DNA from: Actinomycetes bacterium
GTDB taxonomy: Bacteria > Actinomycetota > Actinomycetes > DATJPE01
NCBI GenBank assembly: GCA_031430645.1
Contig: JANPBY010000101.1
Location: forward strand, 6,112 to 70,111
DNA length: 64,000 nt
Direction: 5' to 3'
The translations under genes and the position numbers were made by a program. The notes beneath the pieces were generated by a model, which was not told where the DNA came from, made no database searches, and was given only the letters and a program-made list of their open reading frames with translations. Below, piece after piece: positions 33,972 through 61,012 of this stretch. The stretch's first letter is position 1; each line of letters starts with the position of its first letter.

Positions 33972-34187
33972 ATGCGGCGGATCGCGACGGAGTACGAGTT
34001 CATCGAGTTGAGCTTTCCCCGTGGAACAACGCGTGAGGAATCGCGGCGTGCGCTGACCGAACGCGCCGAATACGGTTCGTGGGAGTTGGCCAGGCTGCGC
34101 TTGTACGCTGATGGCTCGCGTCGCGTATGGCTGAAACGGCTGATCATCAGACAGGGCCAGCGGGGCTGGATAGCAGCCAACGCATGA
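33972..34187 (+). CDS. Small conserved hypothetical protein
   Basis: 71-aa basic ORF (MRRIATEYEFIELSFPRGTTREESRRALTERAEYGSWELARLRLYADGSRRVWLKR). Coding-like composition. Confidence 0.4.
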   Translation: MRRIATEYEFIELSFPRGTTREESRRALTERAEYGSWELARLRLYADGSRRVWLKRLIIRQGQRGWIAANA

Positions 34188-34234
34188 TGGAGAAGCCGAT
34201 CCGCGAGCCGGAGCCGATCAGTTCGGAGGATCCG

Positions 34235-35488
34235 ATGATTCGCCCATTGCCGGCGGATGCGATCCTCCTGCACATTGGCATCCACAAGACCGGCACAACG
34301 GCCCTGCAGGGAGCCGCGAGTGCCTCCCGAGAGCCGCTGTCCACGTGCGGCACCACCTACCCGGGTAGGAGGAAGGATCACCACGCCGAGGCTATGGCCC
34401 TTGTCGACACGAAGGTGGGCTGGGAGACCGTCAGCACCCCTCGAAGAAACGCACAGATCTGGCGGAAGTTCGCTGACACGGTGTCCCAAACCGGCGGGCG
34501 GGTCCTGATCAGCAGCGAGTTCTTCTGTCAAGCGAACGACAAGCAGGCCCAGCGGGCCGTGGGGTCACTCGGTGCGGACAGGGTCCACGTTGTCCTCGGG
34601 CTACGACCCCTGGCCAAACTGCTGCCGTCCTCATGGCAGCAATACCTCAAGAACGGGCGAACGGGCAGCTACGAGAGTTGGCTCAAGCACGTCCTCGCTG
34701 ACCCGCCCGGCATGAAGCAGACGCCTTCCTTCTGGCTGCGAAACGATATCCCCGCTGTCCTTGATCGCTGGGCGGAGTTGATCGGACCCGACAGAATCAC
34801 TGCGGTCATGGTCGACCCAAATCACCGCGATCGGATGTCCGACACGGTTTGTACGCTGCTCGATCTGCCACCTCGCCTGCTCAGTGCGCAAACCCAAGGG
34901 ATCCGAAGCAACCGCGCCATGACCGGGGCAGAGGCCGAACTGATCCGCCAGGTGAACGTCGTGGCCAGACGGGAACTGAGCTCCCCGGACTACATCGCCC
35001 TCGTGCGAAACGGTGCGGCTCGGAGGATGGTCGAGGGCCGGACCCCCGGTCCGCTCGAGCGCGAACTCGGTCTTCCCGCGTGGACCGCGCCTCGATTGGC
35101 GGAGATAGGGGCAACGCACCTGTCGGCGCTGCGGTCGAGCGGAGTCCACATCGTCGGGGATCCCTCGATTCTGGCCGCCCCAGCCGACACCTCGGAACCG
35201 TCCCTCGCCACTGAGCTGCCGATCGATGCCGCAGTTCAGGCCCTGCTCGGCACCTTGCTCAAGGTGTCCACTGCAAAAGGAAATCGTACCGACGAACGAC
35301 TAGTCAGGGCCGTCAAATCGCGGAAGCTGGCCGAAGTCGCCTTGGTGCGTGCGAGGGCGAAGCTTCGCCTGGGCACCCGCGGGAGCCGCCGCAGAGCTGG
35401 GCGACCGCGGAAACTAGGTGGCACGACCGATACCACCTCAGGCCAGGTCGAAGAAGCGGTCGAGGACGCGCACTCCGAACTGGAGTGA
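34235..35488 (+). CDS. Sulfotransferase-family protein (PAPS-binding P-loop-like motif) with highly basic C-terminal tail
   Basis: The ATG at 34235 has a GGAGGA Shine-Dalgarno. The N-terminal LLHIGIHKTGTTALQ resembles the 5'-phosphosulfate-binding loop of sulfotransferases. The C-terminal 70 aa are Arg/Lys-rich. Confidence 0.5.
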   Translation: MIRPLPADAILLHIGIHKTGTTALQGAASASREPLSTCGTTYPGRRKDHHAEAMALVDTKVGWETVSTPRRNAQIWRKFADTVSQTGGRVLISSEFFCQANDKQAQRAVGSLGADRVHVVLGLRPLAKLLPSSWQQYLKNGRTGSYESWLKHVLADPPGMKQTPSFWLRNDIPAVLDRWAELIGPDRITAVMVDPNHRDRMSDTVCTLLDLPPRLLSAQTQGIRSNRAMTGAEAELIRQVNVVARRELSSPDYIALVRNGAARRMVEGRTPGPLERELGLPAWTAPRLAEIGATHLSALRSSGVHIVGDPSILAAPADTSEPSLATELPIDAAVQALLGTLLKVSTAKGNRTDERLVRAVKSRKLAEVALVRARAKLRLGTRGSRRRAGRPRKLGGTTDTTSGQVEEAVEDAHSELE

Positions 35489-36894: not shown

Positions 36895-37534
36895 CACGTT
36901 CCACGGACAGAGCCGCAGGCACGAGCCTGCGGCTCTGGTCATTCCCGGGTCCACGCAGCCTTGGACGGTCGGCGACTTCAGCCCAGCCGAACGCCGGAAG
37001 TCTTGGGCCACTCGACGGGTGTCCCCGCGGATTCCCGCGTCGTAGATTCGCACGGTGAGCCCTACCTTGGCTGAAGCGGCCGCCCGATGATTGCTGTTTT
37101 GTGGTTGAGCGCGCTCTTGGCCGCTGTCGCCGGCGCCGTCGAGATCAGCGGGGGTCGACCGATTCTCGGCGCAACGCTGATCGGCCTGGCCCTCCTCATC
37201 GGCCCCTGTGGGAGGCTCGTCCTCCGTGAGACATCCCGCCCGATTTTGAACGCCGTCCATGACTCCGCGACTCGAAAGCCGAGCCTTCGTGGGCGCTGAC
37301 GACGACCGCGGCTGCCCCGGCCACACCTGGCGGCTTACGGGAGGTGCCCGCGGCGCCAACGGAGCGCACGCTCAATACGAGTGCGAGTTATGCCACAGAG
37401 CGCTCTGGGTCTCCCCCGGCGATCTCCATCCCGCCGACATGGGAGGGTTCCCGCCCGTTGCCTGAGTGAAGGGACGAGGCCGCGCGTCTCCTGGTGTCAG
37501 ACTCTCGACACGAGGAACGACGAGAGGGCAGTCC

Positions 37535-39010
37535 ATGCTTGAGGCAGCAGGAGTCGGCAACCGACTGAGCAAGGCCGACTACAAGGCGATCGTGCCGCAA
37601 CTGCGGCTCGAACTCGTGGATGCCCAGTACGCACTCAAGAGTGCGGACTTTCCCGTCGTCGTCATTATTGCCGGCGACGACCGGGTCGCTGCCAACGAGA
37701 CCGTGAACAGGCTCAACGAGTGGCTCGATACCCGTTTGATCAGAACCCACGTGATGGCCGAACTGAACGAGGCGGAGCGCGACCGTCCGCGATTCTGGCG
37801 TTTGTGGCAGGCGATGCCGCCCAACGGGGGCATCGCTATCTGGGCAGGCGGGCTGTTCCGTCAGGTCACCGCCTATCTCAGGGGCGAGATTGACGGCGTC
37901 CAGCTCGAGACCTGGACCTCGCACCTGGAGAGCCTCCAGGATGACCTCGTCGCAGACGGTGCGCTCGTCGTCAAGTTCTTCCTCCACACACCGGCGGATG
38001 CTCAGCGCGTACGTCTGAAGCGGGCGCAGAGTGACCCGGCTCTGGGGTGGCGGGTCGACCAGCGGGATTGGGCGGCGCTCGACTCGCTCTCCAAAGCCAG
38101 ACCTGTCGTCGAGAGACTCCTCCGGCGGTTGTCGTTCCCTGGCTCTCCCTGGACCGTTGTTGAGGCCACCAACAGCAGGTACCGGGACGTAACCGTGGCT
38201 CGCACGCTGCTGAGTGCACTCACTTCACGGCTGGCCCAAGCTCCGTCACCCGCCATGCCTTCGATGCTCTCCGCCCCAGACGCCAATCAGGTCAGCGTTC
38301 TCGCCACAGTGGATCTGAGCGCAAGAGTCGAGAAGGAGCTTTATCGGAAGCGCCTGAACAAACTCCAGTCCAGACTTCATCGGCTGTCGCTCGAGGCGCG
38401 TGAGCGGGGGCTTTCCACAGTGCTGGCCTTCGAGGGTTGGGATGCCGCGGGCAAGGGTGGGGTCATCCGCCGAGTCACGCAATCGCTGGAGTCGGGCGAC
38501 TTCAGGGTGATCTCCACTGCAGCCCCGAGCGCCGAGGAACGTCGGTACCACTACTTGTGGAGGTTCTGGCGGGACCTGCCAGCGGCCGGCACCGTCGTCA
38601 TCTATGACCGCACCTGGTACGGCCGGGTACTCGTGGAGCGGGTCGAGGGATTCGCAACCGAGGCAGAGTGGCAGCGGGCGTATGACGAGATCAACGACTT
38701 CGAGGCGCAGATGGTTGAGCGCGGGTACCTCGTGCAGAAGTTTTGGTTGCACATCTCCCCCGACGAGCAGCTGGCGCGCTTCCAGGCCCGCGAGAACACG
38801 CCATACAAACAACACAAAATCACCGAGGAGGACTACCGCAACCGTGGCCGCTGGGCGGACTACGAGCGGGCCGTCGACCACATGGTGCTCCGCACCTCTA
38901 CGGAAGAAGCGCCCTGGTATCTCGTCTCCTCGAATGACAAGTTGCACGCCCGCATCGAGGTCCTCGAGAAAGTGACCGCCGGCCTGAAACTGGCCTTGCG
39001 CCGACTGTGA
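37535..39010 (+). CDS. Two-domain polyphosphate kinase 2 family protein (polyphosphate:AMP/nucleotide phosphotransferase type)
   Basis: About 490 aa with two PPK2 modules. The second has Walker A-like FEGWDAAGKGG and the conserved VIYDRTWYGRVLVERVEGF block. The ATG at 37535 has a GAGGG Shine-Dalgarno. Confidence 0.8.
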   Translation: MLEAAGVGNRLSKADYKAIVPQLRLELVDAQYALKSADFPVVVIIAGDDRVAANETVNRLNEWLDTRLIRTHVMAELNEAERDRPRFWRLWQAMPPNGGIAIWAGGLFRQVTAYLRGEIDGVQLETWTSHLESLQDDLVADGALVVKFFLHTPADAQRVRLKRAQSDPALGWRVDQRDWAALDSLSKARPVVERLLRRLSFPGSPWTVVEATNSRYRDVTVARTLLSALTSRLAQAPSPAMPSMLSAPDANQVSVLATVDLSARVEKELYRKRLNKLQSRLHRLSLEARERGLSTVLAFEGWDAAGKGGVIRRVTQSLESGDFRVISTAAPSAEERRYHYLWRFWRDLPAAGTVVIYDRTWYGRVLVERVEGFATEAEWQRAYDEINDFEAQMVERGYLVQKFWLHISPDEQLARFQARENTPYKQHKITEEDYRNRGRWADYERAVDHMVLRTSTEEAPWYLVSSNDKLHARIEVLEKVTAGLKLALRRL

Positions 39011-39116
39011 GTTCGCGCAAAAAGATTCTGGGCCGACGTCACCCATTTGCCACATCCCCGATTGCCCGACAGCCCACCCTCGCGCCATCCTGAGGACACA
39101 AGGGGTGGGGGAAGTC

Positions 39117-40331
39117 ATGCAGGAGGGGATCTCGACGGCGCCCGGACGCCGTCCCCAGGTGGCGCTCGCGATGAGCGCAGCCTTGGCGTTGGTCCTGTTC
39201 ATGTCCCTGCTGCTCTCGACCCAGCCCCTGCCTCGTGCCCTTCCCTGGTGGGCCGCGCTGCCGACCATCGCCGTCCTGTATGCGATCGCCAACCGGACGC
39301 AGTATCTGCGACCAACAGGGAGCGTCAGCACGCTGTCGTACTCCCCGACGACGCCCTTCCTGCTCGCCGGAGCAATTCTGCTTCCGCCCCTGCCGCTTCT
39401 CGCGCTGGCCGTCGTCACTACCTCACCGCACAGCCCGCGCCGTTTGAACATTCTCAGCCTCCGCCTAGGTACGATGAGCGCGGCCTCGCTCGCTTATTGG
39501 CTCGTCAACGGCACAGCCGTTCAAGAGGTGTCCAGCGCCAACGCCAACCAGCAGTCACTGGCGCTGATCGCGTCGATGGTGGCCTACGAGCTGGCTCAGC
39601 TGGTCATCCTCAACGGTTCGATCTGGATGACTGAGGGCATCTCCTTGGCGCGTCAGGCCGCAACCTGGGGTCGGGAGTACGTCGCTGGCGAGGCGTGGGA
39701 ATTGTCGGCCGGGGCTGTCGCCGCCACGTTGGCCCTCACCGCGCCAGTGCTACTCCTCCCCGCAGCAGGTCTCCTGGTTCTCATCGTCGGCCAGGCGCAG
39801 TACGCACAGGCGATCCACGATCGGGACCGCGATGCAAAGACGGGCTTGCTCAACATGCGCGCCTTCACCAGGCTTGCCGATCGGGAGCTTTCAAGTGCTC
39901 GCCGGCACGGGCACCCGCTGTCCTTCTTGATGATCGATGTCGACCACCTTCGGGCCATCAACACCGAGCACGGACACCTGGGCGGAGATGCAGCGATCGC
40001 GACCGTTGCGGCCGTGCTCACCCAGCATCTGCGCGACGAGGATCTTGCTGCTCGATTCGGCGGTGAAGAGTTCGCTGTAGCACTCCCCCACACAGATCTA
40101 GCGCAAGCCGCCGAGGCCGCCGAGCGGATCCGAGGCGCCATCGAGGAATCTCGGCAAAAAGTCTCCACCGGCACCTTGCGAGTGACGGTCTCTGTCGGGG
40201 TCAGCCGATTCTCCGCGGGTGACAGCCTTGACCATCTGCTGGTCTCCGCCGATCGCGCGCTCTATGAGGCCAAGGATGACGGCCGAAACCTCGTTCGCTT
40301 GGCCGCCCGTGCGGGAGTTCTCGACACCTGA
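39117..40331 (+). CDS. Membrane-anchored diguanylate cyclase (GGDEF domain)
   Basis: N-terminal multi-TM region, then a GGDEF domain with active-site RFGGEEFAV and the preceding DVDHLRAINTEHGHLGGD. Confidence 0.85.
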   Translation: MQEGISTAPGRRPQVALAMSAALALVLFMSLLLSTQPLPRALPWWAALPTIAVLYAIANRTQYLRPTGSVSTLSYSPTTPFLLAGAILLPPLPLLALAVVTTSPHSPRRLNILSLRLGTMSAASLAYWLVNGTAVQEVSSANANQQSLALIASMVAYELAQLVILNGSIWMTEGISLARQAATWGREYVAGEAWELSAGAVAATLALTAPVLLLPAAGLLVLIVGQAQYAQAIHDRDRDAKTGLLNMRAFTRLADRELSSARRHGHPLSFLMIDVDHLRAINTEHGHLGGDAAIATVAAVLTQHLRDEDLAARFGGEEFAVALPHTDLAQAAEAAERIRGAIEESRQKVSTGTLRVTVSVGVSRFSAGDSLDHLLVSADRALYEAKDDGRNLVRLAARAGVLDT

Positions 40332-44315: not shown

Positions 44316-45397
44316 CTATGGCCTGATCGTCACGATTGAACCTGCTCCCAGGCCATCACCGGCGAAGACATCCACGGCGGCATAGATTCGGCCGTTGGCG
44401 TAGTCGATGGACGTCGGGCTGTTCACCGAGACGAATGGCTTGGGCCAGCCATCCTTGATCGTCGAAATCTGGTTGGCGAACAGTTCGGCCACATAGACCC
44501 TGCCACCCGGAGTCACTGCGACGTTGGTCGCGCTGACAAACCCACGGCCGATGACCTGAGTTGCGCCGCTGTGCGGGTTGATCTTCAGCACTCTGCCCTG
44601 CGGGCCGAGGCTCCCGTCCTCGGGGCCACCGGGCAGGCTGCTGACGTACAGCATGCCGCCGGGTCCGACTTCTACGTCGGTAGGCACTGGTTCGAAGCGG
44701 TAGCGCGTGCCAACAGTGCAGGCCGGGAGCCCGAGGGCGGCAGCAGCATCCGCGGTGATCTTGACCGACACCGAGGGGAGAACACTGACCACGGAGACCT
44801 TGCCTGCACGGCTCACGTGCAAGATCGCATTGCCAGCGGCCTCGGCGACGTACCACCCGCCGTCAGGGGCGTTCGCGACGGCGTAAGGGTGTGAGTCAAT
44901 GCCGCCCTTGTAGGAGGGCGGGCCGATTTCGTCCACAAGAGGTGCCAGTTCGGCCTTGCACGCATCGGACAAGCCCTTGAAGCCGTACGTTACGTGCGCG
45001 TCAGGGTTGTGCTTCTTCTCGAAGGCGTAGAGGTTGGCGATGTTGCGAACGGTGCCGTTCGAGAACCGTTGCTTGAGCCCACTCGCAGGGTGTTCCTCGT
45101 CCCCTCCGGTCCAGGTGAAGGCCACGTTGTAACCGCGGGAGGCCACGCCCGCAATCTCGCCTGGAAGTGCGAAGAGATCCTTGGTCGACCCGTCGGGCCT
45201 CACCTTGGTGAGGACGCCCGCGAAGGCCTGGCCCACGTAGATTTGGCCGTCGGAGCCCACATCGATCTGCAACGGCCCCACGAGCCCACTGACGATTGGC
45301 TCTGACGGAGCGGGAGCGGCCCAGGCGGTTGATGGAGCGCTGACGACAACCGCCAGTGCGAGAGAACTGAGAATGACTGCCTTGCTAGCTAGTTTCA
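44316..45397 (-). CDS. Secreted beta-propeller protein (ScyD/ScyE-like, NHL-like repeats)
   Basis: The GTG at 45397 has a GGGGG Shine-Dalgarno and a signal peptide KLASKAVILSSLALAVVVSAPSTAWA. Repeated …YVA/YVG… strands are typical of propellers. Confidence 0.5.
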
Positions 45398-45499
45398 CGA
45401 CGAACCCCCATGATTCGAACGAGTACGGATGCCCCGCATGCTCGCACGCACCGGGTGACACGGCCTGACTCAGAAGGACTAGTCATCTAGGGTGACGTC

Positions 45500-46201: not shown

Positions 46202-47404
46202 TCAGGCGTCGGTGTAGGCGACGATCCCGAGGCACATCTCATCAGTGGACCCTTCCCCCCAGACCACGTAGCGCGGAGGCAGCTTCTGCAGTTCGGGAAT
46301 GAGCTGTCGCAGCCCGACATCGTGGGTGCAGGTGACCCTCAGGCGATCGCCGGGGCGGACGGTGACCGGCTCCGACATTTTCCGCGCCTTTTGATCGTCG
46401 AAGTCGTAGACGGGCACATCGAGCAGATTCCGGGTGCTGCCGTCGGCGCGCTCGAGATCGACCTGGATTGACTGACCGAGCAGGTGCATGTGTCCGGCAA
46501 CCGCTTCTACCTGAATCCGCCGATCCAGCGTGCGGGCGCAGGTTTGGGTAGCCGCAGCCTTGGGCGCGCTAGGCGACCCGTCGCACAGAATCTGCAGCCC
46601 GGCCACCGTGCGCCCGGAGGGCGCACCGAACCGGCTCATCACGTCAAGAACTGCCGCTTCCCGGTCGCAGAGGGGGCCCGATTCACCGGCACCGCACGGA
46701 AGCTCGACCGGTGCGGGTAGCAACAGTGTCCTTCGCGGCTCTAGGTCGGCGTCGGAGGGTGCCACCCGAAGCCGCACGATCGTCTCGTCCGGCCCGGAGC
46801 CGTTCAAGAGGTTGTAGTGCATCTGGAGCACGACGAGGCTCCCGCGAGCAAGCTCCATGCCCGTGCCCTCTCGGAACCTCTGCTCCCCACCAGTCGTCGC
46901 GAACCCTGCGACCCATGGGGCGGCATTGAGACCTTCAACCACTCCGCCCGGGTCTGGTAGTCCAGGCCCGCCAAAACAGGACCAACCCAGCCGTTGGTCA
47001 CTCATATCCCTCGTCCGGGCGGCGGCCACCTGTGCCGGGTCAACGCGGTAAAGGATCGCGTGGTGTACGAGGTCGGGGTTCCCAGCCTCGAGTACGACGC
47101 CGGACAGGAACGCGTCGTCGGCCAAGGCAGGGTCGAGCAGGATGCAGCGGTAGTCATCGGTGCCGCCGGCCTCGGCCTGCGGGGTGTAGGCCCCACCCGG
47201 CAGTTCGAGATCGATCCATCGCTCACCCGGCTCCAGAGCTGCTGGCTGGACAGGCGGATCGCTCCCGGGCCTCTGCATTCCCGCGCTATGCCCCGCCGAA
47301 GCGGCGGTCTCTGGGCTCGATGAGTGGTCCGGGGAACCACACGCCACAAGCAGGACCAAGCCGAATCCGACCATCGTGCAGCGGAGGTACTTTCCCCGTT
47401 TCAT
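46202..47404 (-). CDS. Lipoprotein with PHM/DBH-like copper type II ascorbate-dependent monooxygenase fold
   Basis: Signal plus lipobox LLVACGS. Candidate CuH ligands are HH (…DLVHHAILY…) plus a downstream H (…LQMHYN…). Candidate CuM ligands are HxH (…AGHMHLLG…) plus Met (…TDEMCLG…), in the same order as peptidylglycine alpha-hydroxylating monooxygenase. Confidence 0.5.
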   Translation of the reverse strand: MKRGKYLRCTMVGFGLVLLVACGSPDHSSSPETAASAGHSAGMQRPGSDPPVQPAALEPGERWIDLELPGGAYTPQAEAGGTDDYRCILLDPALADDAFLSGVVLEAGNPDLVHHAILYRVDPAQVAAARTRDMSDQRLGWSCFGGPGLPDPGGVVEGLNAAPWVAGFATTGGEQRFREGTGMELARGSLVVLQMHYNLLNGSGPDETIVRLRVAPSDADLEPRRTLLLPAPVELPCGAGESGPLCDREAAVLDVMSRFGAPSGRTVAGLQILCDGSPSAPKAAATQTCARTLDRRIQVEAVAGHMHLLGQSIQVDLERADGSTRNLLDVPVYDFDDQKARKMSEPVTVRPGDRLRVTCTHDVGLRQLIPELQKLPPRYVVWGEGSTDEMCLGIVAYTDA

Positions 47405-47407
47405 GGC

Positions 47408-47815
47408 CTATTCAGCGGGGTCTAGGGTGCTGTCGCCGGCCAGCAACGCAGCGGACAAGTGCAGGCGGAGGGGGTCGAGACGGAGCACTCCCGGCCCGTC
47501 GGCGAGGTGAGTAGGCATCTCAGCCATCAGAAGCGCGAAGGGCGCCGACTCGCGGTGAGCGGTGTACGCCGCATCGTCGGTGAACCACTCGTGAAGCCAC
47601 ACCACACTGTCGTCATCTGGGTCCAGTGACATGAGAAAGGACTCGGTGCCTGGCTCCTCATCGAGACGGTCGACATACCGGTTGAGGGTGTCCAGAAGTG
47701 CAGGACGTGCCCCTTGCTGGGCATGGAGGCGTACGACAAGACCGACTCGTCCTGGTAGCAGAGCCGTCACGTCAGAGGGCGGAGCAGGGGTCACCTCCCC
47801 ATCATGACCTGTCAC
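47408..47815 (-). CDS. Antibiotic-biosynthesis-monooxygenase (ABM)-like small protein
   Basis: About 100-aa core (…LVVRLHAQQGARPALLDTLNRYVD…WLHEWFTDDAAYTAHRESAPF…) typical of the ABM ferredoxin-like fold. Confidence 0.5.
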   Translation of the reverse strand: MTGHDGEVTPAPPSDVTALLPGRVGLVVRLHAQQGARPALLDTLNRYVDRLDEEPGTESFLMSLDPDDDSVVWLHEWFTDDAAYTAHRESAPFALLMAEMPTHLADGPGVLRLDPLRLHLSAALLAGDSTLDPAE

Positions 47816-48618
47816 GGTTGTTCGCGCGCCCGGGCCACGGCCCAGAACGCAAGTGCGGCGGAGGTGGCCACGTTCAAGGAGTCCACACCATGGGACATCC
47901 GAATGGACACGGTGGCGTCTGCAAGGTCGGTGGCACTGCGCGACAGACCACGACCCTCGGACCCCAACAGCAGCGCCACCCGGTCCCGTGGACCGACATC
48001 CAAGTCCGACAGATCACAGGTCGCCCCGTGAGGTGTCAACGCGAGCACCCGGAATCCGAGCGAGCGAAGACCTACGAGCCCCCCGGGCCAGGAGGGACAT
48101 CGGGCGTACGGCACGGCAAAGACCGCACCCATCGACGTCCGGATTGCCCTTCGGTAGAGAGGATCGGCACACTGCGGATCTAAGACGATCCCATCGACGC
48201 CCAGGGCTGTGACAGACCGGAAGATCGCACCGACGTTCGTGTGGTCAACGACTGCCTCGAGGACGGCGAGCGTCAGCGCCCCAGAGGCCACCATCTCAAC
48301 GGTCGGAAGCTCCCGCCGGCTGAAGGATGCCAGGACCCCCCGATGCACGTCATAGCCCGTGGCGAGCCGCAGGTCCATAGGGTCACCGACGTGGACCAGG
48401 CCTCCGGCTGAGACCACGTCGGCGGCGACGCGGACGACGTCATGTCGATCTCGCTTGTCCGGCGTGACAACCAGAGTCCGCACTGTGTATCCGGCCGAGA
48501 GTGCGCGGCGCACAGCCTGAACGCCCTCGGCGATGAAGATCCCGTGCACCGGCTCGGTACGACGTCGAAGGGCGACATCGGTGAGCCCCATGAAGTCGGC
48601 GAGTGGGTCGGTGGTCAC
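47812..48618 (-). CDS. SpoU/TrmH-family RNA 2'-O-methyltransferase
   Basis: SPOUT motifs (…LVLDPQCADPLYRRAIRTSMGAVF…, …LLLGSEGRGLS…, …IRMSHGVDSLNVATSAAL…). Confidence 0.8.
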   Translation of the reverse strand: MTTDPLADFMGLTDVALRRRTEPVHGIFIAEGVQAVRRALSAGYTVRTLVVTPDKRDRHDVVRVAADVVSAGGLVHVGDPMDLRLATGYDVHRGVLASFSRRELPTVEMVASGALTLAVLEAVVDHTNVGAIFRSVTALGVDGIVLDPQCADPLYRRAIRTSMGAVFAVPYARCPSWPGGLVGLRSLGFRVLALTPHGATCDLSDLDVGPRDRVALLLGSEGRGLSRSATDLADATVSIRMSHGVDSLNVATSAALAFWAVARAREQP

Positions 48619-55757: not shown

Positions 55758-58511
55758 TTGGAGAGAGAGCACCCTGTGACCGAGCGGACTTCCGGCCAAG
55801 CGCAACCCGATCTCCAGATCACCGAGACCCGGGTGTACCGCGGGCCGAACATCTGGTCCTATGACGAGTCGATCCATCTGGTGGTCGATCTGGGCTCCCT
55901 CGAGAACTATCCGACGGACCGCCTCCCGGGTTTTGTGGACGGCCTTCTCGAAACTCTCCCGGGGATTGCCGACCACTCCTGCTCGCGGGGCCGTCGGGGG
56001 GGCTTTCTCGAGCGGCTGCGCGAAGGTACCTGGCTCGGTCACGTCGCCGAGCATGCGGCCCTTCAGCTCCAGCACGAGGCTGGTTTTGACATTCGGAGGG
56101 GTAAGACCCGAGGGGTCCCCGGGCAGCCGGGCCGCTACAACGTGGTCTATGGCTACACCGATGAGCGCGTCGGACTCGCAGCCGGCAGGCTAGCCGTACG
56201 GCTGGTCAATCACCTGGTTCAACCGGATCCGGACTTTGCCTTCGACCACGAGCTCGAGCACTTCTTGCTGGGCGCCGAGCGCACCGCGTTCGGCCCGTCG
56301 ACGCAAGCGATCATCGACGAGGCCGTGGCCCGGGACATCCCATGGCTTCGTGTCAACGAGTACTCCCTCGTCCAACTCGGGCAAGGCGTCCACGCCCAAA
56401 GAATTCGGGCCACGATGACCTCCCGTACCTCGGCCTTGGCCGTCGACATTGCTGGGGACAAAGACCTGACGACCCGACTCTTGGCTGCGGCCGGGCTGCC
56501 GGTGCCGAAGTCCGAGTCTGTCCGTTCAGCTGACCGCGCGGTTGAAGCCGCTCGCCGGATCGGCTACCCGGTGGTGTGCAAACCGCTGGATGGCAATCAC
56601 GGCCGCGGAGTCTGCCTAGACCTGCAGGACGAGGAGGCCGTCCGGGCAGCATTCCCCATCGCCGAGGACCAGTCACGCCGCGGTTGGGTCATCGTCGAGA
56701 GCTTCGTGACTGGCCGCGACTATCGGGTGCTGGTCGTTGGTGGACGCATGGTGGCTCTCGCGGAGCGGGTGCCGGCCCACGTGATTGGCGATGGCACGCG
56801 GACCGTCCGGCAGCTCGTCGACGACACCAATGCAGATCCTCGACGTGGCGTGGGCCACGAAAAAGTCCTCACCCGAATCACGATCGACGACAAAGCCATC
56901 GCGCTCGTACGGGAGCAGGGCCTCGAGATGGAGAGCGTCGTCCCTGAGTCGACCATGGTCAAGCTCACTCTGACGGGCAACATGTCGACAGGCGGAATCT
57001 CGATCGACCGGACCTTTGAGGCGCACCCGGACAACATCGAGATCGCTGAGGAGGCCGCTCGGGTCGTGGGACTCGATGTTGCGGGTATCGACTTCATCTC
57101 CCCCGATATTGCAGAGCCAGTCCGCGAGACCGGGGGCGCGATCTGCGAGGTCAATGCCGCACCCGGCTTTCGTATGCACACCCACCCGACGATCGGTGAG
57201 CCGCAGTACGTCGCCAAGCCGGTCGTCGACCTGTTGTTCCCGCCGGGGTCGCCAAGCCGTATCCCCATCGTCGCCGTCACCGGAACTAACGGGAAGACGA
57301 CTACTTCGCGGATGATCGCTCACATCTTCAAGGGGTTGGGCCGCAAGGTCGGCATGACCTCTACCGACGGGGTCGTCATCGACGAACGACTCGTCATCCG
57401 GGCGGACGCTTCCGGCCCGAAATCGGCAAGAATGGTGCTGCAGAATCCGCGCGTCGACTTCGCGGTCTTCGAAGTAGCCCGAGGGGGAATCCTTCGGGAG
57501 GGCTTGGGCTACCAGCGCAACGACATTGCCGTCGTTCTCAACGTCGCGGCCGACCACCTCGGAATGCGCGGGATCGATACCCTTGAGCAGCTCGCCGAGG
57601 TCAAGTCTGTCGTGGTCGAGGCGGTTCCCCGCGACGGGTTCGCCGTGCTCAACGCGGATGACCCTCTGGTCCGCGCGATGAGACGGAAGGCACCCTCGGG
57701 GCGAGTCGTCTGGTTCTCGATGGCCGAGCCTGGATCCGAGACGATGGAACTCATCGACGACTACTGCCGTCGCGGAGGACGGGCTGTGGTCCTGGAGCGC
57801 GGCGACCTGGGCGAGCGGATCGTCATTCGGCACGGTCGACGATCCATGCCCCTGGCATGGACACACCTCCTGCCCGCCACCTTCGGCGGCAAAGCCCGCT
57901 TCAACGTCGCCAACGCCATGGCGGCGGCGGGGGCAGCCTTTGCAGCCGGCGCGCCGCTTCACGATATCCGGCAAGGGCTGCGCACCTTTACGACGTCGTA
58001 CTACCTCTCCCCGGGGAGACTCAACGAACTCGATGTGAACGGCGTCACGGTGTTCATCGACTACTGCCACAACGCTCACGGAATGCGCGCGCTAGGGGAC
58101 TTCGTCGACCGGTTGGCCGAAGATCGCGATGCCGGACCGGACCTGGAACGACACCGGTGCATCGGGGTTATCGCCACCGCCGGTGACCGCCGTGATGACG
58201 ACATGCGCGAGCTCGGCGGAGTCGCGGCACAGCACTTCGACGCGATCATTGTTCGCGAGGATGCAGCACTTCGCGGGCGCGAACGAGGCGAGACCTCAGA
58301 TCGCGTCGACGAAGGCGTGCGCGCTGCCATGTCCGAGGGCGCCCGCTGCCGGTCGACTGAGATCGTCATCGATGAGCTCGACTCCGTTCGGCATGCACTG
58401 ACGCTGGCCAATCCGGGCGACATCCTGGTGATCTGCGTCGACAAGCACGGAGCCGTTCTCGAAGAACTCGAGCGGCGATCTCACATCGCTCAGCCCGGAG
58501 CACACGGCTGA
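55758..58511 (+). CDS. cphA: Cyanophycin synthetase (full-length N + ATP-grasp G + Mur-ligase M domains)
   Basis: RGPNIWSY…HSCSRGRRGGFLERLREGTWLGHVAEH (N domain); VVCKPLDGNHGRGV…VNAAPGFRMH (ATP-grasp); IVAVTGTNGKTTTSRM…DYCHNAHG (Mur ligase). These are colinear with Synechocystis CphA. Confidence 0.92.
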   Translation: MEREHPVTERTSGQAQPDLQITETRVYRGPNIWSYDESIHLVVDLGSLENYPTDRLPGFVDGLLETLPGIADHSCSRGRRGGFLERLREGTWLGHVAEHAALQLQHEAGFDIRRGKTRGVPGQPGRYNVVYGYTDERVGLAAGRLAVRLVNHLVQPDPDFAFDHELEHFLLGAERTAFGPSTQAIIDEAVARDIPWLRVNEYSLVQLGQGVHAQRIRATMTSRTSALAVDIAGDKDLTTRLLAAAGLPVPKSESVRSADRAVEAARRIGYPVVCKPLDGNHGRGVCLDLQDEEAVRAAFPIAEDQSRRGWVIVESFVTGRDYRVLVVGGRMVALAERVPAHVIGDGTRTVRQLVDDTNADPRRGVGHEKVLTRITIDDKAIALVREQGLEMESVVPESTMVKLTLTGNMSTGGISIDRTFEAHPDNIEIAEEAARVVGLDVAGIDFISPDIAEPVRETGGAICEVNAAPGFRMHTHPTIGEPQYVAKPVVDLLFPPGSPSRIPIVAVTGTNGKTTTSRMIAHIFKGLGRKVGMTSTDGVVIDERLVIRADASGPKSARMVLQNPRVDFAVFEVARGGILREGLGYQRNDIAVVLNVAADHLGMRGIDTLEQLAEVKSVVVEAVPRDGFAVLNADDPLVRAMRRKAPSGRVVWFSMAEPGSETMELIDDYCRRGGRAVVLERGDLGERIVIRHGRRSMPLAWTHLLPATFGGKARFNVANAMAAAGAAFAAGAPLHDIRQGLRTFTTSYYLSPGRLNELDVNGVTVFIDYCHNAHGMRALGDFVDRLAEDRDAGPDLERHRCIGVIATAGDRRDDDMRELGGVAAQHFDAIIVREDAALRGRERGETSDRVDEGVRAAMSEGARCRSTEIVIDELDSVRHALTLANPGDILVICVDKHGAVLEELERRSHIAQPGAHG

Positions 58512-58512
58512 G

Positions 58513-60213
58513 TTATTCGGTTCCACGAGCTGTCCGGACCTCGCTCACACGCCGCTTCAGGGCAAGGGGCAGCAGGGATGCTGCCTGCCGAGCGGCGAGC
58601 CAAGCGAGGGCTTCGGTGCGTTCGCCGTGACACATGAAAGCGATGACGTCTCCTGGCGCCGACCGCTCAACGAGTGCGATCAGGGCCACGACCTCTCCAT
58701 CGGAGGTAGGGAAATCGCTGTGCCCCACTGACTTCGCCCCCTCGTCGAAGAGCGCCTGGACTTCGCCAAGGGTGCGTCCACGGAGGTACATCGGGGAGCG
58801 AACAGAGATGACGTCGTCAGCCTGTTGAGCGGCCAACGCTCCGAGTTGAACCAGATCCTCGTCGCGCCGGTCGCCGGCGCCGGAGAGCGCCAGCCGAACG
58901 TTGGACCCAGGCAAGCGCAGCCCGTCCGCGACACCAAGCAGCGCCTCGAGCCCCTCCGGGTTGTGCGCGAAATCCAGGACGACCAAGACCGAGTCCAGCT
59001 CGAAGACGTTCATCCGGCCCGGGTTGTGCGCAACGTCGGGCACGAAGCTCGCGAGACCTGCCGTGATCGCTGGTCGTGGCAGATTCAGGGCCAACGCCGC
59101 TGCAACGGCGGCCAAAGCATTGGCGATGTTGTGGGGCGACAGGCCGGCGAGGGTGACCGGGATGTCCGCGATGGACATCAGATGGTCAGGGTCAGCCGTG
59201 CGATCTCCCAGGACCACCAGATCACCGTCGAGTACGGTCACGGCCCGGCCCCCCTCGTTGAGGGTCTGGCGAATGGCCGGACTGTCGGGTGAGAGGGCGA
59301 AGACCCAGGTTCGGGCGCGGATTCCTGACCGCATGGCGAAGACCCGTGGGTCTTCACCATTGAGAACCACCCACCCCTGCGGTCGGGTCACCCTGGTGAC
59401 CACCGCCTTGACCTCAGCGAGCTGGTCGACGGTGTCGATTCCTTGGAGACCCAGATGGTCGGCCGAAACATTCGTCACGATGGCAACGTCGTTGGCAGCC
59501 ACTCCCATCCCCCTCAAGAGCAGCCCTCCCCGCGCGGTCTCGAGCACGGCAACATCGACGGGCTGGGCCAAGACCAGACGGGCACCGCCCGGACCCGACC
59601 AGTCCCCTGCTTCGATAAGTTGACCGTCGACGTAGACCCCATCGGTGCTCGTCCATCCCGTCGAGCGACCCGCCGTCATGCACAGGTGCGCGAGGATCCT
59701 CGTGGTCGTCGTCTTCCCATTGGTGCCCGTGATGGACACCACAGGAATCCTTGGTTGCGGCAAGTCCGGAGGGAGACCTGGTTCAGCGGCGAGCACGTTG
59801 TGTCCTGCCTCGGCGATGAGCTCATCCATCGGCCGCTCCGCCAGGTCATCAAGCACACCGACCACGGCATGAGCCAAGGCTTCTGCCCGGCCGCGGCGAC
59901 GCCAGGGATAGGCAAGAATGAGTTGGTCGATGTCCCTGCCGGGGCGGGCCCGGACAGCCAGCCGATTCGTTCCCGACGCAGCGGCCACCTGGCGGGTGAT
60001 GTGGACGAGCAGGCGAAGAGCGAAACGTTGACGCTGACCCGAATGTGGCTCGCCGGGCCGCGACCCGGACAGCCCGGCCGAACGGGCAATCCCAAGAACG
60101 GTCTCCTCGGCAAGTCCCACAAGGACCGTGGCGTCGAGGGTCAGTTTGACTGCCGGCCGGGAGACATACAGATTCGGGCCGTCGAGGACTCTCAGCTCGA
60201 CTAGCGCAGTCAT
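58513..60213 (-). CDS. Truncated cyanophycin-synthetase-like protein (CphA N domain fused directly to Mur-ligase M domain; ATP-grasp G domain absent)
   Basis: The ATG at 60211-60213 gives MTALVELRVLDGPNLYVSRPAVKLTLD… (CphA N-domain-like), followed after about 160 aa by IPVVSITGTNGKTTTTRILAHL…TDGVYV…LETARGG…DHLG…DFAHNPEG. No ATP-grasp motifs lie between them. Confidence 0.8.
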   Translation of the reverse strand: MTALVELRVLDGPNLYVSRPAVKLTLDATVLVGLAEETVLGIARSAGLSGSRPGEPHSGQRQRFALRLLVHITRQVAAASGTNRLAVRARPGRDIDQLILAYPWRRRGRAEALAHAVVGVLDDLAERPMDELIAEAGHNVLAAEPGLPPDLPQPRIPVVSITGTNGKTTTTRILAHLCMTAGRSTGWTSTDGVYVDGQLIEAGDWSGPGGARLVLAQPVDVAVLETARGGLLLRGMGVAANDVAIVTNVSADHLGLQGIDTVDQLAEVKAVVTRVTRPQGWVVLNGEDPRVFAMRSGIRARTWVFALSPDSPAIRQTLNEGGRAVTVLDGDLVVLGDRTADPDHLMSIADIPVTLAGLSPHNIANALAAVAAALALNLPRPAITAGLASFVPDVAHNPGRMNVFELDSVLVVLDFAHNPEGLEALLGVADGLRLPGSNVRLALSGAGDRRDEDLVQLGALAAQQADDVISVRSPMYLRGRTLGEVQALFDEGAKSVGHSDFPTSDGEVVALIALVERSAPGDVIAFMCHGERTEALAWLAARQAASLLPLALKRRVSEVRTARGTE

Positions 60214-60244
60214 GGGCCGGAGCCTAACTGTGCCCAGGGCGCCG

Positions 60245-61012
60245 TCAGGCACCCATGGCGTGCACCCCTCCGTCAACGTGGACGATCTCGCCGGTCGTCT
60301 TCGGGAACCAGTCGGACAGCAAGGCCACACATCCCTGAGCAGCGGGAGTGGGGTCGTCGAGGTCCCAGCCAATCGGGGCGCGAGACGCCCACACTGCTTC
60401 GAAGTCGCTGAATCCGGGAATCGAGCGGGCTGCCATGGTCTTGATCGGTCCCGCCGCCACCAAGTTCACCCGGATACCCTGGTCCCCGAGGTCACGAGCG
60501 AGATAGCGCGACGTCGACTCGAAGGCGGCCTTGGCGACACCCATCCAGTCGTACTTCGGCCAAGCAACGGTCGCATCAAAGGTCAGCCCGACGACCGAAC
60601 TGCCTGAGGACATCATGGGCAGGCAGGCCATGGTGAGGGCCTTGAGCGAGAACGCGGACACGTGAACCGCGGTGGCGACATCGGGCCAGGTGGTCTTCAA
60701 GAAGTTGCCGCCGAGCGCAGACTCCGGTGCGAAGCCGATCGAGTGCAGTACGCCGTCGATGCCGTCCATGTGCTCGCCCACGCGCCCCGGGAGGCCGGCG
60801 AGGTCTTCTTCGCTCGTGACATCGAGTTCGATCACCGGCGCAGGCGTAGGGAGTCGCCGGGCGATGCGTTGCACGAGCGACATCCGGCCATAGCCCGTCA
60901 GAACCACCTGTGCGCCCTGCTCCTGGGCCAGGCGTGCGACATGGAAAGCGATGGAAGCATCGGTCAGAACGCCTGTGACCAAGACGCGCTTGCCTTCGAG
61001 GATTCCGGCCAT
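60245..61012 (-). CDS. fabI: Enoyl-ACP reductase (NADH), FabI/InhA type
   Basis: MAGILEGKRVLVTGVLTDASIAFHVARLAQEQGAQVVLTG… and the later Y/K active-site region. It is arranged with fabG as in the mabA-inhA operon. Confidence 0.88.
   Translation of the reverse strand: MAGILEGKRVLVTGVLTDASIAFHVARLAQEQGAQVVLTGYGRMSLVQRIARRLPTPAPVIELDVTSEEDLAGLPGRVGEHMDGIDGVLHSIGFAPESALGGNFLKTTWPDVATAVHVSAFSLKALTMACLPMMSSGSSVVGLTFDATVAWPKYDWMGVAKAAFESTSRYLARDLGDQGIRVNLVAAGPIKTMAARSIPGFSDFEAVWASRAPIGWDLDDPTPAAQGCVALLSDWFPKTTGEIVHVDGGVHAMGA

Follow-up and report, generated by a model that had tools for sequence, protein, structure and literature searches.

Peptidylglycine alpha-hydroxylating monooxygenase (PHM) and dopamine beta-hydroxylase (DBH) are the textbook examples of non-coupled dicopper monooxygenases. 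These enzymes hydroxylate their substrates using O2 and two electrons at two copper atoms about 11 Å apart, they make the amidated hormones and noradrenaline of animals, and they are treated in the literature as eukaryotic and ascorbate-dependent. The window analysed here, i.e. the whole stretch of 64,000 nucleotides from contig JANPBY010000101.1 of an Actinomycetes bacterium (assembly GCA_031430645.1), contains a gene for a putative lipoprotein, whose homology to PHM and DBH in fold and copper ligands is practically certain. Judged from its sequence and its predicted structure, this lipoprotein is probably an active dicopper monooxygenase of the PHM/DBH type, and not a peptidylglycine hydroxylase.

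An earlier note, made from the DNA sequence alone, had proposed that candidate copper ligands occur in the protein in the order HH, H, HxH and M, and that this order mirrors the CuH and CuM sites of PHM. All four motifs are present in this order (LVHHAILY, residues 112–119; LQMHYN, 193–198; GHMHLLG, 304–310; DEMCLG, 388–393). Of the two Pfam families suggested there for a profile search, the C-terminal one, Cu2_monoox_C (PF03712), matched residues 287–397 with 38.1 bits at a gathering cut-off of 23 (E = 1.4e-9). A search of NCBIfam with the lipoprotein gave no match. Because a single-sequence search of the PDB returned DBH as the sole match with E = 0.88, a profile of 70 diverse relatives (27–57% identity to the query) was needed. 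This profile matched PHM chains over both domains at E = 1.5e-9, and its N-terminal domain was aligned to PHM residues ~73–194 (domain E = 2e-5).

The AlphaFold2 model, calculated from an alignment with 77 homologues, reached a mean predicted local distance difference test score (pLDDT) of 86.4 and a predicted TM-score of 0.81, with disorder confined to the first ~44 residues. When the model was compared to the PDB with Foldseek, all 31 top matches were PHM or DBH (E = 5e-13 to 5e-10); the next fold in the ranking followed at E = 1.6e-5, and no bacterial member of the family was among the matched solved structures. The predicted structure is thus the two-domain beta-sandwich (double jelly-roll) of PHM and DBH and not an unrelated fold, in agreement with the earlier note. 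The best TM-score (0.68, normalised by target) was obtained between the model (m648405f812d2) and chain A of PDB entry 6ALA, which is the H108A variant of PHM with citrate and is taken as a 'closed' conformer (PMC12164859). The predicted arrangement of the two domains may therefore lie nearer to the closed state than to the open state with its copper distance of 11 Å.

Residue equivalences to PHM were counted along the printed alignments of the diverse profile (Table 1). In PHM, CuH is bound by H107, H108 and H172, and CuM by H242, H244 and M314 (PMC6123673). All six ligands align with residues of the lipoprotein, and these positions were invariant in 121 close sequences and retained in 65–69 of the 70 diverse relatives (~93–99%; CuH 69/70, CuM 65–68/70), so that the proposed ligand arrangement and the expected conservation of the His and Met residues were both borne out. 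Beyond the ligands, Y85, Q194 and Q338 were conserved in 69, 69 and 67 of the 70 relatives, respectively. Their PHM counterparts, Y79, Q170 and Q272, are second-sphere and electron-transfer residues, and N316 and Y318 of PHM form, together with R240, the set that binds the substrate carboxylate. Q272 of PHM is hydrogen-bonded to H242, and R240 forms a salt bridge with the carboxylate of the substrate (PMC12164859). The set R240/N316/Y318 is missing in the lipoprotein. Across the family the position of R240 is occupied mainly by A, L, F, G, T or M, and Arg is outside these six commonest residues among the 70 diverse relatives; the position of N316 holds L, F or I, and that of Y318 holds T, I, V or L. 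Since the ligands and the second sphere are kept and this set is lost, the parts of PHM that bear the chemistry are retained and the peptidyl-glycine site is not. With small or hydrophobic side chains at the positions of the carboxylate-binding Arg and its two partners, a glycine-extended peptide would not be the substrate.

Between the two domains, the bacterial proteins possess ~40 extra residues. The spacing from the QxHY to the HxH motif amounts to 110–117 residues, compared to 72 in PHM. Two helices are predicted in this insert (residues 248–259 and 261–273), and its cysteines C237, C246, C274 and C289 are invariant; as a whole, the eight cysteines of the lipoprotein family are invariant or nearly so. 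The insert motif P-x-E-x-P-C...C-x-R was found in 115 of 120 proteins of the lipoprotein clade and in 115 of 119 proteins of a clade fused to cytochrome c. It is likely that the insert is cross-linked by disulfides, with C237-C246 and C274-C289 as expected pairs besides C87-C143 and C359-C391 of the two domains, and we infer that it shapes the active-site cleft or binds the substrate.

The N-terminus of the lipoprotein, MKRGKYLRCTMVGFGLVLLVAC followed by GS, consists of a basic n-region, a hydrophobic core and the lipobox L-V-A-C with the cysteine at position 22. This fits the bacterial lipobox pattern [LVI][ASTVI][GAS]C of Lgt/LspA substrates. A lipobox L-[VAI]-[AG]-C is kept in nearly all full-length close homologues, an N-terminal transmembrane helix takes its place in a few of them, and the column of Cys22 is conserved in 81 of 87 aligned homologues. 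The conserved lipobox and the eight invariant cysteines support the view of the earlier note that the protein is lipid-anchored and extracytoplasmic, with a predicted location at the outer face of the cytoplasmic membrane. The only NCBI-derived database protein identical to it (P0001) starts at Met43 and comprises 358 amino acids, whereby signal peptide and lipobox are lost. This start is probably wrong, because an independent gene call from a Logan assembly (P0271) gave 400 amino acids with the same start as the open reading frame (ORF) of the window, and because the lipobox is conserved in the homologues.

The segment between lipobox and core is predicted to be flexible (pLDDT <50 for residues 16–44). 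Its Ala/Ser/Pro-rich sequence is variable, except for a motif H-x(1-2)-H (e.g. SAHPHSS or GHQHGG), which is present in the linkers of 39 of 77 homologues and keeps a fixed distance of ~10–14 residues to the start of the folded core; in the lipoprotein itself GHSAGM stands at this position. By its sequence, the motif may be a copper-capturing or electron-entry arm. The same place is held by cytochrome c in the fused relatives.

The family to which the lipoprotein belongs is large. The assumption of the earlier note that bacterial members of this fold are rare has to be revised, since at least 4,738 clusters at 90% identity were found with E ≤ 1e-3, and clustering at 50% identity gave 3,969 clusters at this threshold and 1,804 at 1e-10. 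With two subfamily-specific peptide patterns, relatives were detected in 509 GTDB species genomes. Nearly all of the best 80 of these 509 genomes were labelled Actinomycetota, and a few were titled 'uncultured bacterium' only; they include Jatrophihabitantaceae, Mycobacteriales, Ca. Nanopelagicales, Nocardioidaceae and Sporichthyaceae, and, as cultured carriers, Longivirga aurantiaca CGMCC 4.7317 and Nocardioides jiangsuensis WL0053. One contig labelled as a metagenome-assembled genome of Bifidobacterium breve (L049, CALQEM020000081.1) carries a 55%-identical homologue and a SpoU synteny typical of these soil and freshwater actinobacteria; this contig is probably mis-binned.

In 61 of 102 full-length diverse representatives (~60%), the core is preceded by one CxxCH motif, and by no more than one. 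The fused upstream region matched the Pfam family Cytochrome_CBB3, and additionally YceI in the longest forms, and the N-terminal part of the profile showed a weak match to the actinobacterial cytochrome c subunit QcrC (E = 0.0025). A clade of such fusions of ~490 amino acids occurs in Gaiellaceae and soil metagenomes, usually annotated as 'mono/diheme cytochrome c family protein'. In four distant relatives (P0169, P0176, P0186 and P0196; 700–880 amino acids), the PHM-like core is combined with both a mono-haem cytochrome c and a domain resembling YceI. Isoprenoid lipids are the ligands of known YceI proteins, which might hint at a lipid substrate.

The mechanism regarded as most likely for the lipoprotein is the following. 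Tethered by its lipid at the outer face of the cytoplasmic membrane, the protein would bind two coppers as in PHM. CuM would activate O2 for the hydroxylation of a bound substrate, probably a hydrophobic one, at a C-H bond, and CuH would pass on the second electron, again as in PHM. Part of the binding of this substrate would probably fall to the family-specific insert. Because the pocket positions are small or hydrophobic, a hydrophobic or envelope-associated substrate becomes more likely, and on these grounds the substrate is quite possibly hydrophobic. The physiological reductant would be a c-type cytochrome or another donor linked to the respiratory chain, which meets the lipoprotein in trans at the membrane surface. 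We know of no ascorbate synthesis in bacteria of this type, and ascorbate is unlikely as physiological reductant on biological grounds. For this reason, and because ~60% of the diverse relatives are fused to cytochrome c, a donor of this kind comes first among the candidates; that it is of the cytochrome type is suggested tentatively, by analogy to the fused proteins. There, the cytochrome c is attached upstream of the CuH domain, where electrons must enter, which argues for a redox-active family with a protein donor instead of ascorbate. Taken together, the proteins could represent a large and ancient bacterial branch of the PHM/DBH superfamily, in which respiratory electrons pass from a c-type cytochrome to CuH, and in which a hydrophobic molecule of the envelope or the environment is hydroxylated while it is kept in place by the family-specific insert, itself probably stapled by disulfides. 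This overall picture is regarded as possible rather than probable.

The gene neighbourhood was analysed at 80 genome loci, for which the ORFs within 5 kb on either side were clustered de novo. In the window, the gene order is NfeD, Band7, SLT, SpoU, ABM, the PHM-like gene, ung, the ScyE-like gene and pgi. The stop codon of SpoU and the GTG start of ABM overlap by 4 nt (47812..47815), and the stop codon of ABM lies 3 nt before the ATG of the lipoprotein (47405..47410), which suggests one transcript with translational coupling. No clear Shine-Dalgarno sequence was seen in the junction before this ATG, and a scan for promoters and terminators around the gene was uninformative. The products of the three apparently coupled genes have unrelated predicted functions and locations. 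SpoU was the upstream neighbour kept most frequently (34–35 of 80 loci), which is synteny and not function.

The adjacency of ung (NCBIfam NF003588, 363 bits; opposite orientation) and of the ABM gene, which the earlier note had pointed out, is correct. As functional partners of the lipoprotein both were ruled out, since ABM adjoins the gene at only 6 of 80 loci and ung at only 5 of 80, and neither product has a signal peptide. The ScyE-like gene and pgi were likewise found in 5 of 80 loci each. Other recurrent neighbours were a TSUP/TauE-like membrane protein (23 loci), a histidine phosphatase (18), an MFS transporter (17) and an epimerase (13). The ORFs clustered across the 80 loci included no conserved partner with a redox, copper or biosynthetic function, and in the closest group, which is of Jatrophihabitans type and comprises 24 loci, no neighbour was shared. 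A DoxX/DoxD-Rieske fusion directly downstream of the gene in one genome (L001/L016) was ruled out as electron donor, as it is confined to that single locus. Among the 16 neighbouring proteins of the window that were scanned, no redox or copper proteins and no products of cop, cso or ric-type genes were detected. In two of three long contigs, the cytochrome c-fused genes are flanked by a GH15-ricin glycosidase on one side and by an HtrA-type protease with a two-component system on the other, which gives no clue to the substrate. Otherwise the window carries ordinary chromosomal genes (gnd, pgi, serB, PPK2 and those for a GGDEF protein and cyanophycin synthetase; Table 1).

Table 1. Features of the PHM/DBH-like lipoprotein, its residue equivalences to PHM and further genes of the window.
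Feature	Window position	Strand	Residues	Basis or remarks
PHM/DBH-like lipoprotein gene	46202..47404	-	400 aa	Stop codon in span; ORF, Pfam PF03712, fold match
Signal peptide with lipobox	47339..47404	-	1-22	L-V-A-C, predicted lipidated Cys22
Disordered Ala/Ser/Pro-rich tether	47231..47338	-	~23-58	GHSAGM (H39, M43); low pLDDT
GHSAGM at linker motif position	~47276..47300	-	36-43	Position of H-x(1-2)-H in homologues
Segment upstream of NCBI start	47276..47404	-	1-43	Start at Met43 probably wrong
N-terminal (CuH) beta-sandwich domain	46709..47230	-	~59-232	Ligands H114, H115, H196; profile alignment to PHM, conservation, secondary structure
Inter-domain insert of bacterial family	46526..46711	-	~232-293	P-x-E-x-P-C...C-x-R, predicted helices 248-259 and 261-273, four Cys
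C-terminal (CuM) beta-sandwich domain	46205..46525	-	~294-400	Ligands H305, H307, M390; Pfam, alignment, conservation
CuH ligands			H114, H115, H196	PHM H107, H108, H172; profile alignment
CuM ligands			H305, H307, M390	PHM H242, H244, M314; profile alignment
DEMC motif			D388-E389-M390-C391	PHM D312-E313-M314-C315; profile alignment
Conserved non-ligand residues			Y85; Q194; Q338	PHM Y79; Q170; Q272; profile alignment
Cysteine pair			C87, C143	PHM C81, C126 (C81-C126 disulfide in PHM); profile alignment
Cysteine pair			C359, C391	PHM C293, C315 (C293-C315 disulfide in PHM); profile alignment
Cysteine			C289	PHM C227; profile alignment
Positions of PHM carboxylate-binding set			A303; L392; I394	PHM R240; N316; Y318; profile alignment
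ABM-domain gene, upstream	47408..47815	-		PF03992, E = 8e-12
SpoU/TrmH-family methyltransferase gene	47812..48618	-		PF00588, E = 3.4e-32
ScyD/ScyE-family secreted beta-propeller	44316..45461	-		NF033206, 229 bits; weak NHL-repeat matches
ORF	34127..35488	+	453 aa	No Pfam match at E <= 1e-5; may be spurious high-GC ORF
PPK2 polyphosphate kinase	37466..39010	+		Two-domain; two matched stretches, 380 bits
GGDEF diguanylate cyclase	39105..40331	+		After PPK2 gene
Cyanophycin synthetase	55758..58511	+		Cyanophycin_syn N-domain, ATP-grasp and Mur ligase domains
Second Mur-ligase-like protein	58513..60372	-	619 aa	Convergent with cyanophycin synthetase

Several observations weigh against the assignment as an active monooxygenase with the mechanism outlined above. 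The second Pfam family named in the earlier note, Cu2_monooxygen (PF01082) for the N-terminal domain, reached 14 bits at a cut-off of 30 (E = 0.06), and this part of the proposed profile search therefore failed for the lipoprotein itself; some of its relatives pass the cut-off. The idea of a hydrophobic substrate was derived from three pocket positions. The protein of the window has no cytochrome c domain, and the donor is an extrapolation from the fused relatives. At the 80 loci, no conserved cytochrome, copper chaperone or reductase gene stands beside the lipoprotein, and the gene context is housekeeping synteny without a clue to the substrate. Finally, the statement of the earlier note that the substrates of the bacterial proteins are unknown was confirmed: a full-text literature search found no study of a bacterial member and hence no measurement of copper binding, activity, substrate or donor, although subscription journals were thinly covered, so that this absence is not a proof.

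Three other functions have to be considered. A redox enzyme that uses the PHM scaffold for a reaction other than hydroxylation, such as an oxidase or peroxide-forming reaction, sulfoxidation, dealkylation or the reduction of a small inorganic molecule with electrons from cytochrome c, would also explain the copper sites and cytochrome c fusions, which indicate a flow of electrons through the protein, as well as the large conserved insert and a substrate pocket unlike that of PHM. PHM itself catalyses sulfoxidation and dealkylation. However, the complete His2Met site of CuM and its second sphere are features tied to O2 activation for hydrogen atom abstraction in PHM and DBH, and no sequence feature indicates a different reaction; this explanation is considered unlikely.

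Somewhat more improbable is a non-catalytic lipoprotein for buffering, storage or delivery of copper at the membrane surface, in which the PHM sites would be kept for the metal only. In its favour are the two His/Met copper sites and the H-x(1-2)-H motif of the tether, which resembles the metal-capturing arms of copper-trafficking proteins, and the gene stands alone without substrate-related neighbours. But the residues aligned with PHM Y79, Q170 and Q272 are not ligands and are nevertheless conserved in 67–69 of the 70 diverse relatives, most diverse family members carry a redox cytochrome c fused to their core, which fits an electron-consuming enzyme and not a chaperone, and no products of cop, cso or ric-type genes are among the 16 neighbouring proteins scanned.

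A true bacterial PHM acting on the C-terminal Gly of secreted peptides, with the ScyE-family propeller as PAL-like lyase, is highly improbable: the fold and copper sites are identical to those of PHM, and the beta-propeller encoded two genes away, which is secreted and matches NHL repeats weakly, recalls the pairing in eukaryotic PAM, where the PAL part is a zinc-containing NHL beta-propeller, but Ala, Leu and Ile occupy the positions of R240, N316 and Y318, the ScyE-like protein has no sequence similarity to PAL (PDB search, E ≤ 10), its gene is no more frequent at the loci than ung and pgi and is separated from the PHM-like gene by the oppositely oriented ung, and no precursor-peptide gene is evident. 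The propeller as an analogue of PAL is thus unsupported.

A dicopper monooxygenase of the PHM/DBH type with another substrate is hence the preferred interpretation. The result is a correct annotation, with good support, of a member of an uncharacterised bacterial branch within the PHM/DBH superfamily, which has an insert and an anchor of its own and probably also its own supply of electrons; it is not a demonstrated new function. Databases already label the lipoprotein automatically via its Pfam domain. If the picture of a branch driven by respiratory electrons is true, these proteins would be the first non-coupled dicopper monooxygenases from prokaryotes, and the animal enzymes for neuropeptides and catecholamines could plausibly have evolved from them. 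The branch would bear on the origin of peptide amidation and catecholamine synthesis in animals. It would also be amenable to genetics and, with a protein as electron donor, would allow the debated long-range electron transfer from CuH to CuM to be studied, and it would indicate copper-dependent oxidative chemistry at the cell surface of actinobacteria, including abundant freshwater and soil lineages. It represents a testable lead into unexplored copper oxygenase chemistry.

In comparison to PHM, the protein of the window lacks the carboxylate-binding set R240/N316/Y318 and possesses the inter-domain insert of ~40 residues with two predicted helices and four cysteines. PHM is part of a PHM-PAL-transmembrane protein, whereas the lipoprotein is anchored by an N-terminal lipid and has no PAL, either fused or as a partner, and its bacterial host presumably supplies no ascorbate. 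DBH, tyramine beta-hydroxylase and MOXD1 (PDB 4ZEL) differ from the lipoprotein in their DOMON and dimerisation domains. No Pfam match to DOMON was obtained in the lipoprotein, and only the signal peptide and the disordered linker are located upstream of its core; conversely, DBH has neither the family-specific insert nor a lipid anchor. PNGase F belongs to the same Pfam clan and to the PHM/PNGase F superfamily, but it is a hydrolase without the copper ligands, and its structural score was far lower.

A further close system is that of the cytochrome c-fused relatives, annotated as 'mono/diheme cytochrome c family protein' or 'Cu2_monoox_C domain'. They share 27–41% identity with the lipoprotein over the whole core, the identical ligands, the P-x-E-x-P-C...C-x-R insert and the eight cysteines, and they are also encoded by stand-alone genes. 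In contrast to the lipoprotein, which has just a lipobox and a flexible tether of ~35 residues, their CuH domain is preceded by a mono-haem cytochrome c of their own and in some cases also by YceI; the three-part fusions with YceI loosely recall DBH with its accessory N-terminal domain. By their sequences, the lipoprotein and the cytochrome c-fused forms belong to one bacterial family.
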